NCBI GenBank assembly: GCA_001767695.1
Contig: MELR01000011.1
Location: 192 to 64,191 of the forward strand
DNA length: 64,000 bases
Source: Actinobacteria bacterium RBG_16_68_21
Lineage (GTDB): Bacteria > Actinomycetota > Acidimicrobiia > Spongiisociales > UBA11373
Reading direction: 5' to 3'
The notes below the pieces were generated by a model. It did no database searches, was not told the DNA's origin, and saw only the letters and a program-made list of their open reading frames with translations. The translations under genes and the position numbers were made by a program. Below are positions 12,030-63,900 of this stretch, piece by piece. Numbering within the stretch: position 1 is the first letter of the stretch; each line of letters starts with the position of its first letter.

Positions 12030-12100
12030 CCGCAATTGGCAATTGGCAACCAGTAATTCGCGTCGAAGGGGTTGTCTAACTGGAAATCTGGAAACTGGAG
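12030..12100. repeat. Heptamer tandem-repeat spacer (locus A): (GCAATTG)2-3 then CTGGAAAT-CTGGAAA-CTGGAG
   Basis: gcaattggcaattggcaacc (12032-12050) and ctggaaatctggaaactggag (12079-12099), between ribH stop and rnhB start. Confidence 0.8.
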
Positions 12101-12105
12101 ACGAC

Positions 12106-12567
12106 TCAGAGTTGCCCCAATTGTCGCAACACCCACGCCGCCCGAACCGCCGCCTCAACGGCCTCGGTTCCCTTGTTCCCCGGCCCGGGACGGCTCCGTT
12201 CGATGGCGTGGCCCGGGTCGCGGGCGGTCAGCACCCCGAACCCCACGGGGACACCCGAGGACACCGCTACCTGACGCAGCCCGGCAGCGCACTGCGTGGC
12301 GATGTGTTCGTAGTGGTCGGTGTCTCCGGCGATCACCGCCCCCAGGGCGACCACGGCGTCGCATCCCACTGCCGCCAGCCGGGCCGCCACCACCGGCAAC
12401 TCGAACGCGCCGGGGACGTGGACGATGATCGGGTCTTTCGCCCCGGCCCCGGCGAGTGCCGCCAGGGCACCCTCCAGCAACCCCGACGTCACCGCGGCGT
12501 TGAAGTCGGCCACGACGACCCCGATCCTCATGCCGGTGGCGTCGAAGGGAGCTGCTATCTCAGGCAT
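12106..12567 (-). CDS. ribH: 6,7-dimethyl-8-ribityllumazine synthase
   Basis: 153 aa lumazine synthase fold ([10 protein letters not shown]..., GAFELPVVA..., HYEHIA). Confidence 0.9.
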
Positions 12568-13774
12568 CAGGCTCCAACTCCATGAGGTGGCCCAGCTTGG
12601 CGACCTTGGTCGTCAGGTAATCGATATTCTCCGGCGTCGGGGTGGTCTCCAGCGGAACGCGCTCGACGATGCTCAGCCCGTAGCCCTCGAGTCCGGCACG
12701 CTTCGCCGGGTTGTTGGTGAGCAGGCGCATCGACGTCACGCCGAGGTCGACGAGGATCTGGGCTCCGATTCCGTAGTCCCTGGCGTCGGCGGGGAGACCG
12801 AGGTCGAGATTCGCCTCCACGGTGTCTCTTCCCCGCTCCTGGAGGGCGTAGGCCTGGAGTTTGTGCATCAGACCGATTCCTCGCCCCTCGTGTCCCCGGA
12901 AGTAGAGGACGACCCCCCTACCCTCCCCGGCGATCTTGCGCATCGCGTCGTGCAACTGCACGCCGCAGTCGCAGCGCATGCTCCCGAACACGTCCCCGGT
13001 GAGGCACTCCGAGTGAACCCGCACCAGGACGTCCTCTCCCCCACCGATGTCTCCCTTCACCAGGGCGATGTGGTGGGTGCCGTCGAGCTTCGATTGGTAC
13101 CCGACCGCCGTGAAGTCCCCGTACTCCGTGGGGATCCGCGCCTCGGCGATCCTCTCGACGAAACGCTCACGGTGACGGCGGAACGAAATCAGGTCACCGA
13201 TGCTGACGATGGGAATGCCATGTTCGGCGGCGAAGGCGGTCAACTCGGGGAGCCGGGCCATCGAGCCGTCCTCGTTTACGATCTCGCAGAGCGCCCCGGC
13301 CGGGTACAGGCCGGCGAGACGGGCGAGATCGACCGCGGCCTCCGTGTGCCCCGCCCGCTTCAGCACGCCTCCCTCCTGGTAGCGGAGGGGGAAGATGTGG
13401 CCCGGCCGGGCCAGATCCTGGGGGCGGGTGTCGGGATCGATCAAGGCCCCGATGGTCGCCGCCCGGTCCGCGGCGGAGATGCCCGTGGTCGTTCCATGGA
13501 TGTAGTCCACCGACACCGTGAACGCGGTCCGATGCGAGTCGGTGTTCTCCACCACCATCAGGGGCAGTCGCAGCTCGTCGAGCCGGCTGCCCTCGACCGG
13601 GACGCAGATGAGACCGGACGTGTACCTCACCATGAAGGCGATTCGCTCAGGCGTCACCCGCTCGGCAGCGATGATCAGGTCACCTTCGTTCTCCCGATCG
13701 GCATCGTCGACGACCACCGCGAACTCGCCGCGAGCAACGGCGGCGATCGCGGCTTCGATCGGCGCGAACGTCAC
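12560..13774 (-). CDS. ribBA: bifunctional 3,4-dihydroxy-2-butanone-4-phosphate synthase / GTP cyclohydrolase II
   Basis: DHBP synthase half ([16 protein letters not shown]) plus GTP cyclohydrolase II half with Zn Cys triad ([15 protein letters not shown]) and [10 protein letters not shown]; GTG start at 13774 after GGAGGT, overlapping ribE stop. Confidence 0.9.
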
Positions 13775-14364
13775 GTGCCGACCTCCAGCAGCCGCGCCAC
13801 GTACTTGGCGAGCACATCGACTTCCAGGTTGATCCTGGTGCCGGGAGCGAGCGTCCCGAAAGTGGTCACCTCCCGCGTGTGAGGAATCAGCACGACCTCG
13901 AACCCGCTCTCGTCGATTCCCGACACCGTGAGGCTGACGCCGTCGAGAGCGACCGACCCCTTCGAGGCCACATAGCCGATGAGGCTCGCCGGAGGATCCA
14001 GCCATACCCGCCGCGCATCGCCCTCGGCGGCGACGCTCCGCACCACAGCCACGCCGTCGACATGGCCCTGGACGAAGTGGCCGTCGAACCTCCCGGCGGC
14101 CGAGACCGGCCGCTCGAGGTTGACCTCGGATCCGGCGGAGAGATCACCGAGATTGGTCAGCCGCAACGTCTCGGCGACCGCTTCCACCTCGAAGTCGGCG
14201 GTGCCCACCACGACCGCGGTCAGGCACACCCCATTGATCGCGATCGAATCACCCACGGCGAGACCCGCTGCAGTGACGGGTCCCGAGATCGTGAGGTGGG
14301 TTCCGCCGGACGCCGCGACTACACGGCGCACAACTCCCCGTTCGGCGACGATCCCCGTGAACAT
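13771..14364 (-). CDS. ribE: riboflavin synthase alpha chain
   Basis: MFTGIV...[14 protein letters not shown] / [12 protein letters not shown] internal duplication typical of riboflavin synthase. Confidence 0.9.
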
Positions 14365-61576: not shown

Positions 61577-61604
61577 CGATCCTCCGAAGGAAACGCCGAC
61601 CAGC

Positions 61605-62753
61605 CTAGGCCGGAGCCTGCGTAGCGTAGCCGCCCTCCCGGCCGTCCCCGCCCCGGGAAGCAGCCGACTCGGCCCGGAATCGCTCGAACCGTCCGGCGCG
61701 GATCGCGCTGCGGGCGTCGGCGAGGACACCGAGGGTGTACCACAGGTTGTGGATGCTCACCAGGCGGAGGCCGAGCAGCTCCCGGGTCAGGTGGAGGTGC
61801 CGCAGGTAGGCCAGCGAGTACCCCCGGCATGCCGGGCAACCACATTCCGGGTCGATCGGTCGATCGGCGGCGGCGAACTCGGCGCGGCGCACCGAGAAGT
61901 CGCCGCTTGTGGACAGAACCTTGCCGTGGCGGGCAAGCCGCGTCGGCCACACGCAGTCGAACAGGTCGAAGCCACGGGCCACCGCGTCGAGGACCCCCTC
62001 GGTGTCACCGAGTCCCATCACATAGCGGGGGCGATCGGCGGGGAGCACACCGGCCACGACTTCCAGGGCGGCGTTGCGCTCCGGGGCGGTCTCTCCCACG
62101 CTCAGCCCCCCGATTCCGAAGCCGGCGAACCCCAACTCGGCGGTGCGCCGGGCGCTCGACTCGCGCAGGTCCCGGTCGACGCCTCCCTGCACGATGCCGA
62201 AGAGCGCCTGGTCGGCACGACGATGAACGGCGACCGCCCTCTCCGACCAGCGCAACGTCCGCTCCATGGCATCCCTGACCACGTCCGGCGGCGCAGGCAA
62301 GCCGACGAGGTGATCGAGCACCATGGCGATGTCCGCCCCGAGTCGCTCCTGCACGGCAACGGCACCCTCGGGCGTGAGATGAACCGCCGTTCCGTCGTAG
62401 GTCGAACGGAAGGCCACCCCGTCCTCGTCGACCTTGGGTGCCAGCGAGAACACCTGATAACCGCCGCTGTCGGTGAGGGTCGGTCCTCCCCATCCCATGA
62501 AGCGGGCCAACCCGCCCAGCGCGGCGACGATCGTGTCGCCGGGACGGAGCAACAGGTGATAGGTGTTCGCCAGCACGATCTCTGCCCCGGCCTCCCTCAG
62601 GTCGCGGGCATCGATCCCCCGCACGCTCCCCCGGGTCCCCACGGGCATGAACGCCGGGGTGGCCACCTCCCCGTGGGGAGTGGCCAGGGCGCCACTCCGG
62701 GCCGCCCCGTCCGTCGCCGCGATCGTCAGGGTCACCGGATTCAACGGGCACAC
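61605..62753 (-). CDS. tgt: queuine tRNA-ribosyltransferase
   Basis: TPAFMPVGT, catalytic Asp region ([11 protein letters not shown]), zinc site CGCPAC...H; probable GTG start at about 62753 overlapping queA 3' end; the 628-aa ORF extension upstream is spurious. Confidence 0.85.
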
Positions 62754-63751
62754 TCCGCCAGCATGGCGTCGCCGAAGGAGAGGAACCGGTAGCCCCTGGC
62801 GAGGACAGTGTCGTAGATCTGGCGCCACCGCGGACCGACGAAAGCGGCGATCAGCACCACCAGCGTCGACCCGGGGACGTGGAAGTTGGTCACCACCAGG
62901 TCCACCGCCCGGAACCGGTAACCCGGCGTGATGAACAGCCGGGTCTCCCCGGCGAAGGCCTCCACCTCGCCCGAAGCGGCGGCCGCGGTCTCCAGGGTTC
63001 GCACGACGGTGGTGCCGATCGCCACCACTCTCCCCCCGGCGCCGCGAGCCGCGGCAATCGCCGCGGCCGCCTCGGTCCCCACCGTGGCATTCTCGGCGTG
63101 CATCACGTGATCGGCGATGTCCTCGGCGCCGATGGGGCGGAAGGTGTCGAGCCCGATCTCCAGATCGATCCCGACCACCGCGATGCCGCGGGCGGCGAGA
63201 CCCTCCAGGACCCCCGCGGTGAAATGGAGGCCCGCGGTCGGCGCCGCCGCCGAGCCGGGTTGGCGGGCGTATACCGTCTGGTACCGCTCGGGATCTGACA
63301 GTGTGCCCCGGAAGTACGGAGGCAGCGGCACCTCTCCGATGTCCTCGGCGGCGGCGGCGATGTCCCCCTCCTCGGCGCGCAGCGTCACCCGCCCGGAGGT
63401 GGGCGCATCGGTGACCACAACCAGCGCGTCGCCGAAGCGCAGCCGCGTACCGCTCCGGATCCGCCGCGCCGGCCGCACCAACGCCTCCCATGACCCGTCG
63501 CCCCGGGGGCGGAGCAGCAGCGCCTCCACCCGGCCTCCCGAGCGGTCCTTCTCCCCGATCAGTCGGGCGGGGCGAACCCTGGTGTGATTGACCACCACCA
63601 CGTCGCCCTCCCGGAGCAGACCGGGCAGATCGGAGAACCGATGGTCGGTCATGGTTCGGGTGTCGAGCAGCCGGGAGGCGTCCCGGGGCTCGATCGCCGC
63701 CTGGGCGATGGCCGTTTCCGGGAGGTCGTAGAAGAACTCGGCGGTCTTCAT
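62741..63751 (-). CDS. queA: S-adenosylmethionine:tRNA ribosyltransferase-isomerase
   Basis: From ATG at 63751: [17 protein letters not shown]...PLPPYF...TTVVRTLE, typical QueA; 336 aa. Confidence 0.88.
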
Positions 63752-63777
63752 GTGGGACGGAGTGTGTTCGGAAGACG

Positions 63778-63900
63778 CGGCAATTGGCAATTGGCGGCGT
63801 CCGCTATCCCCTATCCGCTGTCCGCAATTGGCAATTGGCCAACCGGGAGTCTTACGGGAAACTGGAAACCGGAAACACGGGCGACTGGCGACTGGCGACG
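63778..63900. repeat. Compound heptamer-periodic array (locus F): (GGCAATT)2 ... CTATCCC CTATCCG CTGTCCG (CAATTGG)2 CCAACCG GGAGTCT TACGGGA AACTGGA AACCGGA AACACGG (GCGACTG)2 GCGACGC
   Basis: About 14 consecutive in-register heptamers fill the whole ruvB-queA spacer. Confidence 0.85.

Follow-up and report, generated by a model that had tools for sequence, protein, structure and literature searches.

The 64,000-nucleotide (nt) stretch of DNA analysed here (the window), from contig MELR01000011.1 of the metagenome-assembled genome (MAG) of Actinobacteria bacterium RBG_16_68_21, carries tandem arrays with a period of 7 nt in six of its intergenic spacers. We conclude, with a probability of roughly 0.55, that these arrays are a hypermutable family of heptanucleotide simple sequence repeats (SSRs), genome-wide and lineage-restricted, and not a designed cis-element. 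A first-pass annotation had described strict 7-nt arrays in the six spacers. Its description was borne out by Tandem Repeats Finder (TRF), which detects period-7 arrays at all six, and by a lag scan in which a perfect tract had to comprise two or more copies plus 3 nt, with the expectation taken from 20 third-order Markov simulations of the window. For the MAG itself, all counts cover this 64-kb window. Period 7 yielded 9 perfect tracts against 0.30 expected (simulation maximum, 1). The same scan found 2 tracts of period 5 (1.95 expected), none of period 8 (0.2 expected) and none of periods 9–15. A looser lag-7 scan recovered five of the six loci, missed the short arrays at 12030–12100 and found nothing outside the six spacers.

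Nearly all genes of the window lie on the minus strand, according to gene calls and Pfam matches made on near-identical contigs and mapped back. In the direction of transcription, ruvB is followed by the first array spacer (63778–63900), queA-tgt-yajC-secD-secF, the second (58334–58422) and apt-relA. Further along, aspS-rarA precede the third (43907–44053), which leads into alaS-ruvX-mltG-aroE-pilB, a second T2SSE ATPase and pilC; the fourth (34105–34248) separates pilC from pilin-pilin-pilD-pilMNO-hyp206, and the fifth (29001–29025) separates hyp206 from aroC-aroK-aroB-pepQ-efp-nusB. The sixth (12030–12100) lies between ribH and rnhB-infC-rpmI-rplT. All six spacers (ruvB|queA, secF|apt, rarA|alaS, pilC|pilin, hyp206|aroC and ribH|rnhB) are flanked by co-directional minus-strand genes. 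Intergenic DNA makes up about 5% of the window, yet it holds every period-7 tract, and arrays occur in about 6 of the 14 spacers of at least 80 nt, the others being free of 7-nt periodicity. The claim that the arrays never enter coding sequence therefore stands. They do not, however, run exactly from stop to start codon as had been proposed: the first unit lies 0–7 nt past the upstream stop in five of the six spacers (at rarA|alaS the array overlaps the final base of the rarA TAG stop), but the arrays end 27–140 nt short of the next start. They take up about 50–77% of the spacer in five cases and about 20% in the sixth.

The hypermutability of the arrays was revealed by comparing the window with contigs of other samples in NCBI, ENA, JGI and Logan assemblies. 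Outside the arrays, the flanks of these contigs are 99.2–100% identical to the window, and copy number proved polymorphic between strains in the comparison that the first-pass annotation had proposed as a check. The pilC|pilin array consists of 6 copies of CCAAGGT in the window and in contigs L001 and L004, of 11 copies plus a truncated unit in L002 and of at least 12 in L005; contigs L003 and L005 end inside it. At hyp206|aroC, L001 is longer by exactly one 7-nt unit. At secF|apt, a comparison of L010–L016 showed that length is preserved while AATCGCC, GATCGCC and AATCGCT units are swapped. The largest change was found at ruvB|queA, where the window, L010 and L011 have the flanks and an internal anchor (GTAAGACT) in common and almost all units differ (AGTCGCC, TTTCCNG, AATTGCC and GGATAGC in the window; CGTCGCC, CGAGTTG, CGAATCG and CGTATTG in L010 and L011). 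Over 21 kb, L001 differs from the window by two indels only, the 7-nt array unit and a 12-nt in-frame indel near window position 33359, in the second pilin gene, and the 20 kb of L006 align to the window without gaps. Because the flanks are near-identical while the arrays differ, we conclude that the arrays are hotspots of mutation, with a rate of change far above that of point substitution.

Contigs that end inside the longest array, as L003 and L005 do, would be in keeping with an artefact of short-read assembly or with chimeras. The same arrays nevertheless turn up in four or more independent projects and assemblers, and across the secF|apt array L016 matches the window at 100% identity. 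Moreover, the window arrays measure 17–72 nt, below the k of 141 suggested by 'k141_' contig names, and relatives carry orthologous arrays. Because four independent projects recover the arrays (NCBI, ENA, JGI and Logan), we do not regard them as artefacts and place the probability of that explanation close to nil.

The second line of evidence is the distribution of the arrays among relatives. A scan based on Tgt brought up 80 metagenome loci that have the gene order of the window, ruvB-queA-tgt-yajC-secD-secF-apt-relA. Loci with at least 69% Tgt identity contain 23 perfect period-7 tracts in 112 kb (GC content 0.68), against 1 tract in 290 kb at 63–68% identity (GC 0.65) and 1 in 232 kb below 63% (GC 0.63). 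Periods other than 7 do not differ between these groups. Eight array-bearing members of this rich clade have a ruvB|queA spacer of 82–189 nt with a lag-7 identity of 0.45–0.64; three other members (L147, L185 and L162) have spacers of 32–81 nt and no clear array. In most relatives with Tgt identity below 69% the same junction measures 6–71 nt, often exactly 12, and lacks periodicity. Exceptions among the distant relatives are L202 (125 nt, lag-7 identity 0.52) and L215 (92 nt, 0.48), which are periodic, and several others with spacers of 124–688 nt that are not. The secF|apt spacer spans 121–150 nt in the rich clade versus 15 nt in 6 of 10 more distant relatives (up to 98 nt). Since the junctions are short in most relatives, we read the arrays as lineage-specific insertions that would have inflated formerly tight junctions.

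Unit sequences add to this picture of a family. GGCAATT/GGCGATT occurs at five loci of the window, CAGCGGG at two and CTGGAAA-type units at two, exactly the recurrence that had been claimed. Units also recur at orthologous and unlinked loci of relatives, and the arrays are properly described as a dispersed family and not as isolated microsatellites. At all six loci the arrays have a single orientation on the plus strand, and reverse-complement units are absent from the window array spacers. The single register attributed to adjacent heptamers is kept within blocks, but the two rarA|alaS blocks are offset from each other by 2 nt; the CAATTG core, said to be present in several units, is confined to one unit family. 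We pooled 36 unit classes from the window, strain variants and clade relatives and obtained a mean nearest-neighbour distance of 1.08 substitutions, compared with 1.39±0.11 for composition-matched random heptamers (none of 300 nulls was as low) and a mean pairwise distance of 2.88 versus 3.08±0.03. The unit classes form a connected mutational network, although part of their closeness is expected to come from variants within one array.

Relatives vary on the same themes. Both the ruvB|queA spacer of L145 and the secF|apt spacer of L140 have CGCCCGT/GCCCGTC after the stop codon and TTGCGAA nearer the next gene, and the ruvB|queA spacer of L010 and L011 combines CGTCGCC with TTGCGAG/CGAATCG, related to that unit pair. 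The GCCCGTC units of L140 sit where the window has GACGGGC/GACGGGT (58405..58423), which belongs to the same family of units, and related CCAGTTN/CCCGTTN units follow ruvB in L137, L138, L140, L144 and the window. In addition, every genome has a core of its own that recurs at unlinked loci: ACTGG in L157, CCCGT/ACGGG in L140 and AATTGCC in the window. About half of the tracts of relatives are G-rich in the sense strand (e.g., CGGGTAA and TCGGGCG). In some relatives a C-rich array is followed by a reverse-complement G-rich array, as in CCCGTTT...CGGGTAA (L140 at 1003–1334 and 5864–5943, L157 at 5923–5995, the ruvB|queA spacer of L202, and L144). Such an inverted pair could form a hairpin; the window itself has no such arrangement.

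How could such arrays arise? The gains and losses observed are exact 7-nt steps, and slipped-strand mispairing during replication or repair would produce them; we infer a slippage origin for the window arrays from these unit-step indels. Adjacent blocks of related units in register are seen as well, as would result if one unit acquired a point mutation and was then amplified again. Selection would then exclude the arrays from coding DNA, a unit of 7 nt not being divisible by 3, and from the 30–100 nt that precede the next start codon, so that they accumulate just behind stop codons, the position in which they are found. Junctions of about 12–15 nt in outgroups would in this way have been inflated to 100–270 nt in the window lineage. 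The contrast with syntenic sister lineages, about 50-fold, may reflect replication or repair machinery, or another trans factor, that favours 7-nt units, and the small unit vocabulary at unlinked loci suggests that units are to some extent copied from array to array or that certain units are favoured. Effects on expression would be by-products, namely weakly folded, C-rich RNA between genes and a variable length upstream of the pilin gene, that individual loci may exploit.

We searched for signs of a specific function in the array spacers. Rfam 15 at the gathering score has no match in them, its only matches in the window being a flavin mononucleotide (FMN) riboswitch and a 16S rRNA fragment elsewhere, and consensus scans detected neither promoters nor terminators in the array spacers. 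The predicted folding of their RNA is no better than that of shuffled sequences (z of +0.3 to +1.5 in five and −0.25 in hyp206|aroC). On these three grounds a structured RNA or a terminator was rejected, and the earlier proposal of regulator-binding arrays or terminators found no evidence in the promoter, terminator, Rfam and folding analyses. Palindromic elements of the repetitive extragenic palindrome (REP) or bacterial interspersed mosaic element (BIME) type were ruled out in the window, given the lack of reverse-complement units and folding no better than shuffles. Four further candidates considered from the sequence (DNA-uptake sequences, Chi sites, a sigma-54 promoter and CsrA GGA motifs) did not fit in spacing, orientation or generality and were dropped. 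A TACAAT sequence is present 6 nt upstream of the apt ATG (window 58308–58319, minus strand). Its spacing fits the −10 box of a putative leaderless apt transcript; if it acts as one, transcription of apt would begin downstream of the secF|apt array, which would then not be part of the apt mRNA.

The composition of the spacers raises another possibility. Sites of Rho utilization (rut) are C-rich, G-poor and weakly structured in RNA. The arrays might accordingly act as insulators, their unstructured transcript after the stop codon loading Rho, which would terminate or attenuate read-through. On the sense strand, C outnumbers G by 114 to 60 in rarA|alaS and by 47/28, 96/79, 54/42 and 34/27 in four other array spacers, with equality in hyp206|aroC (49/49), while in most non-array spacers of the window G is at or above C. 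The sense RNA of five array spacers is predicted to fold at −0.22 to −0.35 kcal/mol per nt, versus −0.39 to −0.46 in non-array spacers (hyp206|aroC, with the smallest array, −0.44), and the start of five of the six arrays so close to a stop codon would suit Rho loading. Yet the C-rich bias is lost in relatives, where G-rich tracts are as common, and the outgroups have the same junctions at 12–15 nt without an array. In the window the bias is not significant, and because the six loci lie on one strand of one replichore, a transcription bias cannot be separated from a replication bias. GGCAATT arrays of other phyla and the G-rich heptamers of Xanthomonas (PMC4692102) show no strand bias either. 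We consider a Rho-loading role improbable.

The data from other bacteria come from a genome scan for three tandem copies of GGCAATT, which matched at least 119 loci in Acidobacteriota, Verrucomicrobiota, Planctomycetota, Bacteroidota, Acidimicrobiia, Proteobacteria and others; the figures that follow hold among the matches listed. Period 7 is the sole enriched period at these loci: 312 tracts have it, whereas periods 5, 6 and 8 account for 15, 19 and 10 tracts. Of the 312, 155 consist of units other than GGCAATT. With gene orientation called by a crude home-made gene caller, GGCAATT arrays show no orientation bias relative to co-directional flanking genes (26 versus 23), which led us to reject a strand-specific function at the RNA level. 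Thirty-four of 49 arrays lie closer to the preceding stop codon than to the following start, the median distances being 52 and 118 nt. An inverted partner array is present nearby at between a quarter and a half of the GGCAATT loci. GGCAATT often faces an AATTGCC array 0–50 nt away, giving long heptamer palindromes (L050, L060, L089, L114, L120, L123 and others in L017–L135), which are perfect in L120 and L123; a MAG labelled Alcaligenaceae (CAZFGM01) has facing-array palindromes on at least 11 contigs. In viral contigs used as a control, however, GGCAATT in triplicate and a scrambled heptamer in triplicate (GGACTAT) gave 5 matches each. Any heptamer triplet appears to be far above chance; as the scrambled control was equally frequent, we dropped the idea of GGCAATT as a special pan-phylum unit and claim no special status for it.

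Recurrent units could also be binding sites for a sequence-specific factor, whether a protein that binds DNA in the nucleoid or as a regulator, or one of the cold-shock-domain type that would hold one heptamer of single-stranded RNA per domain. A limited vocabulary reused at unlinked loci and in related genomes, unit classes closer than chance and a roughly maintained spacer length are consistent with such a factor, and the literature holds speculation on a heptamer-binding partner in Nostoc (10.1101/2022.06.06.494920) and on binding of heptamers by CspB (PMC4679880). On the other side, units are replaced wholesale between strains 99.8% identical, and the dominant core differs from one genome to the next. 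Both orientations occur in other phyla, sister lineages do without arrays altogether, and the closeness of unit classes is expected from in-situ mutation anyway. We give this explanation little probability.

The array before the major pilin gene deserves separate attention as the best candidate for an expression rheostat or contingency locus, in which copy number in a 5' untranslated region (UTR) or promoter would tune the downstream gene. CCAAGGT copy number is 6 versus about 12 in near-identical strains, contig breaks suggest heterogeneity within samples, and the downstream gene encodes a surface pilin. By analogy, in the 5'-UTRs of Haemophilus influenzae hmw1A and hmw2A the transcript level drops as ATCTTTC heptamers increase in number, and the repeats pair with a complementary G-rich arm to form a hairpin targeted by RNase III (PMC12721329). 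The complementary C-rich and G-rich arrays of L140, L144, L157 and L202 would fit such a scheme. As in hmw, where copy number varies within populations, the pilC|pilin array has a variable 7-nt copy number upstream of a gene for a surface structure, and short-read assemblies break there. Unlike the window arrays, hmw is a dedicated contingency locus of a pathogen with a measured effect on expression. No window array spacer has a complementary arm or stable hairpin, nor did the consensus scan find a promoter in any of them; the arrays adjoin the upstream stop rather than the downstream start. The placement typical of phase variation, with an SSR in the promoter, 5' UTR or ORF of a gene of surface or variable function, would fit pilC|pilin only, the other five arrays preceding housekeeping genes with no obvious need for switching (queA, apt, alaS, aroC and rnhB). 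We therefore regard a rheostat as an unlikely explanation of the arrays.

Heptamer repeats of this kind have been described before. In cyanobacteria, short tandemly repeated repetitive (STRR) sequences comprise several families of tandem heptamers within one genome, intergenic and also inside operons. The units are reportedly CCCCAGT, TTGGTCA and CAACAGT, going back to work by Mazel et al. in 1990. The analogy with STRRs drawn in the first-pass annotation is fair at the level of kind, since the window, too, has tandem heptamers of several families scattered over its intergenic DNA. The hosts differ, heterocystous cyanobacteria there and an Actinomycetota MAG here (five proteins of the window that were compared match the RBG_16_68_21 MAG exactly), and no STRR1–3 unit occurs in tandem in the window, in any rotation or on either strand. 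One-mismatch likenesses to STRR1 (in the rotation CCAGTCC, versus CCAGTCG here) or to TAACTGA are no more than chance would give with so many unit pairs compared and were set aside.

The assertion that such elements had no description in Actinomycetota-like genomes did not hold. According to PMC4679880, the survey of Mrázek, Guo & Shah (2007, PNAS) had three Actinobacteria in its top ten of genomes for long SSRs with 5–11-nt units. The same survey, as relayed in PMC4679880 and PMC4692102, made heptanucleotides the commonest class of long SSR and proposed polymerase slippage as their origin; by these accounts long SSRs are mostly non-coding and typical of large, high-GC genomes of non-pathogens. 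Like them, the window arrays are head-to-tail 7-nt units beyond compositional expectation in non-coding DNA. The survey was genome-statistical, and our analysis adds an uncultured clade, a unit vocabulary, turnover at the level of strains and the contrast between a clade and its sister lineages. We conclude that the window arrays belong to an already described kind, heptanucleotide long SSRs, Actinobacteria included, and that the strain-level turnover, the tenfold inflation of spacers and the sharp clade boundary are new.

Other heptamers offer partial parallels. The GGGAATC and GGGGA(T/C)T repeats of Xanthomonas and Nostoc are intergenic, about 28 nt from the end of the upstream open reading frame (ORF) and about 160 nt from the next (Rehm et al. 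2015, PMC4692102). They lie mostly between co-directional genes without strand preference, conserved in position and variable in length and sequence among close relatives (PMC4692102). The window arrays resemble them in their placement near the end of the upstream gene, and GCGGGCA/GCGGGTT at 43997–44053 shares their G3N4 form; unlike them, most window units have no G-run and a single spacer can mix several unit types. The TAACTGA repeat of marine Beggiatoaceae is a single unit in 2–6 copies directly upstream of start codons (MacGregor 2015, PMC4679880). It is similar in that a dominant heptamer is reused at many intergenic sites with a patchy phylogenetic distribution, whereas the window arrays are mosaics beside stop codons. 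GATAGRA of Chloroflexus is another heptamer repeat alike in kind (PMC6749651). None of the STRR, Xanthomonas/Nostoc, Beggiatoaceae, Chloroflexus or H. influenzae hmw units is found in tandem in the window, and a literature search for the exact GGCAATT array sequence gave no match in the library searched.

Individually, the arrays differ in purity and length. In ribH|rnhB, TRF reports 2.6 copies of GCAATTG (sense AATTGCC; 12032..12049) with 100% matches, a perfect tract, and 3 copies of AACTGGA (sense TTTCCAG; 12078..12099) with 87% matches, the latter starting 7 nt past the ribH stop. The TRF array of hyp206|aroC is GGCAATT in 3.6 copies (29001..29025). The pilC|pilin spacer has 7.3 copies of GACCTTG by TRF (sense CCAAGGT; 34105..34155; 97% matches) about 130 nt upstream of the pilin start, and 6.7 copies of a degenerate CAGCGGG (sense CCCGCTG-type; 34198..34247; 75% matches) directly after the pilC stop. 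In rarA|alaS, a degenerate array of about 10–11 units (43906..43977), assigned periods 7 and 21 by TRF, reads in the sense strand, in one register and without indels, as GCTAATT, GCCAATT, GCGCATC, GCTAATC, GCCAGCT, GCTAATC, GCGTCAC, GCCCATC, TCCCATC and GCTCATC; lag-7 identity in this spacer is 0.53, against 0.27–0.34 at the other lags from 3 to 12. Abutting the rarA stop are 8 copies of GCGGGCA/GCGGGTT (sense CCCGCTG/CCCGCAA; 43997..44053; TRF matches of 85% at period 7 and 100% at period 28), in which the lag scan distinguishes three perfect tracts. Their plus strand, antisense to the genes, reads as (G3N4)8, eight G3 runs with 4-nt loops and thus a potential G-quadruplex motif. The AATTGCC, CCAAGGT, AGTCGCC and TTTCCAG arrays do not fit the pattern of four G3 runs, and because most window units lack a G-run, G-quadruplex formation is not their general property. 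The secF|apt spacer contains 6 copies of ATTGGCG/ATTAGCG by TRF (sense AATCGCC-type; 58341..58385), whose order varies between strains, and 2.7 of GACGGGC/GACGGGT (sense CGTCACC/CGTCGCC; 58405..58423), the first of them 6 nt past the secF stop. At ruvB|queA, TRF resolves a mosaic of GGCAATT (2.4 copies), TCCGCTA-type units (3.7) and GCAATTG (2.3) at 63779..63839, then GGAAACC/GGAAACT (2.9 copies; sense TTTCCNG; 63857..63876) and, abutting the ruvB stop, GGCGACT (2.9 copies; sense AGTCGCC; 63880..63899; 100% matches).

Several other features of the window were recorded. The type IV pilus cluster (29090–38755; pilB, the second T2SSE ATPase, pilC, two pilins, pilD and pilMNO) is inserted between aroE and aroC of an otherwise actinobacterial alaS-ruvX-mltG-aroE...aroC-aroK-aroB-pepQ-efp-nusB block. 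Between its two pilin genes lies a strong GC-rich stem-loop, GAAGGGGGCGG...CCGCCCCCTTC (33447–33512, minus strand), which resembles an attenuator or terminator placed behind the major pilin gene. Coding repeats of 24/27 nt that encode Thr-rich linkers (GETTTTTVAGGETTTT) occur at 29314–29459, 54325–54456 and 60636–60820. They belong to three exported proteins that are not related to one another, namely hyp206 (pilus cluster), a protein of 551 aa whose N-terminus is prepilin-like, and SecD, in which they lie in an insert. A relative also has the SecD insert with Thr-rich repeats, and linker repeats are found in L140 at 8917–9071 and 14828–14906. The 5' end of a 16S rRNA gene occupies window positions 1–172 on the minus strand (model positions 1–162, 115 bits), the gene running off the window start. 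A complete FMN riboswitch aptamer (15466–15586, minus strand, 108 bits) lies in the 221-nt spacer upstream of ribD, which is without heptamer periodicity.

Some observations weigh against a hypermutable SSR family shaped by slippage. Purely local neutral slippage does not predict that one unit, AATTGCC/AATCGCC, should occupy five of six unlinked loci, nor that unit types should keep orthologous positions across about 70% Tgt identity, as in L145, L140, L010 and L011. The ruvB|queA spacer stays at about 140–190 nt in most clade members despite the turnover of its units, which could point to selection on length. The C-rich mRNA sense of the window spacers (apart from hyp206|aroC) and the uniform orientation of the arrays are further such points. 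Slippage does not account for a unit of 7 nt in preference to one of 5 or 8, contact with the polymerase being a published hypothesis and not a demonstrated mechanism. Because vocabulary reuse, orthologous positions and the 7-nt step remain unexplained, we keep the ideas of a rheostat, of Rho loading, of a binding factor and of a trans-acting determinant alive.

Under the last of these, the clade boundary would mark a single gain or loss of a trans-acting determinant that writes the arrays and spreads the unit vocabulary to permissive sites after stop codons, a proposal that we regard as speculative and rather unlikely. Candidates for it are a factor that templates or binds heptamers and a variant of the polymerase or of a repair component that slips in steps of 7 nt.

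The preference of bacteria for 7-nt over 5-, 6- or 8-nt repeats has reportedly been known since 1990 (STRRs) and 2007 (a genome survey). The hypermutable family in this lineage offers a view from natural populations, with complete array turnover between strains 99.8% identical, formerly tight operon junctions enlarged about tenfold and a trait that is on or off between closely related, syntenic lineages. As indel hotspots that break short-read assemblies, heptamer arrays could serve as strain markers in metagenomes. The clade contrast provides a comparative-genomics handle on a possible genetic determinant; if a trans-acting determinant does lie behind it, the same class of determinant would explain STRRs, the heptamers of Xanthomonas, Beggiatoa and Chloroflexus, and also why 7-nt SSRs are overabundant in bacteria generally.

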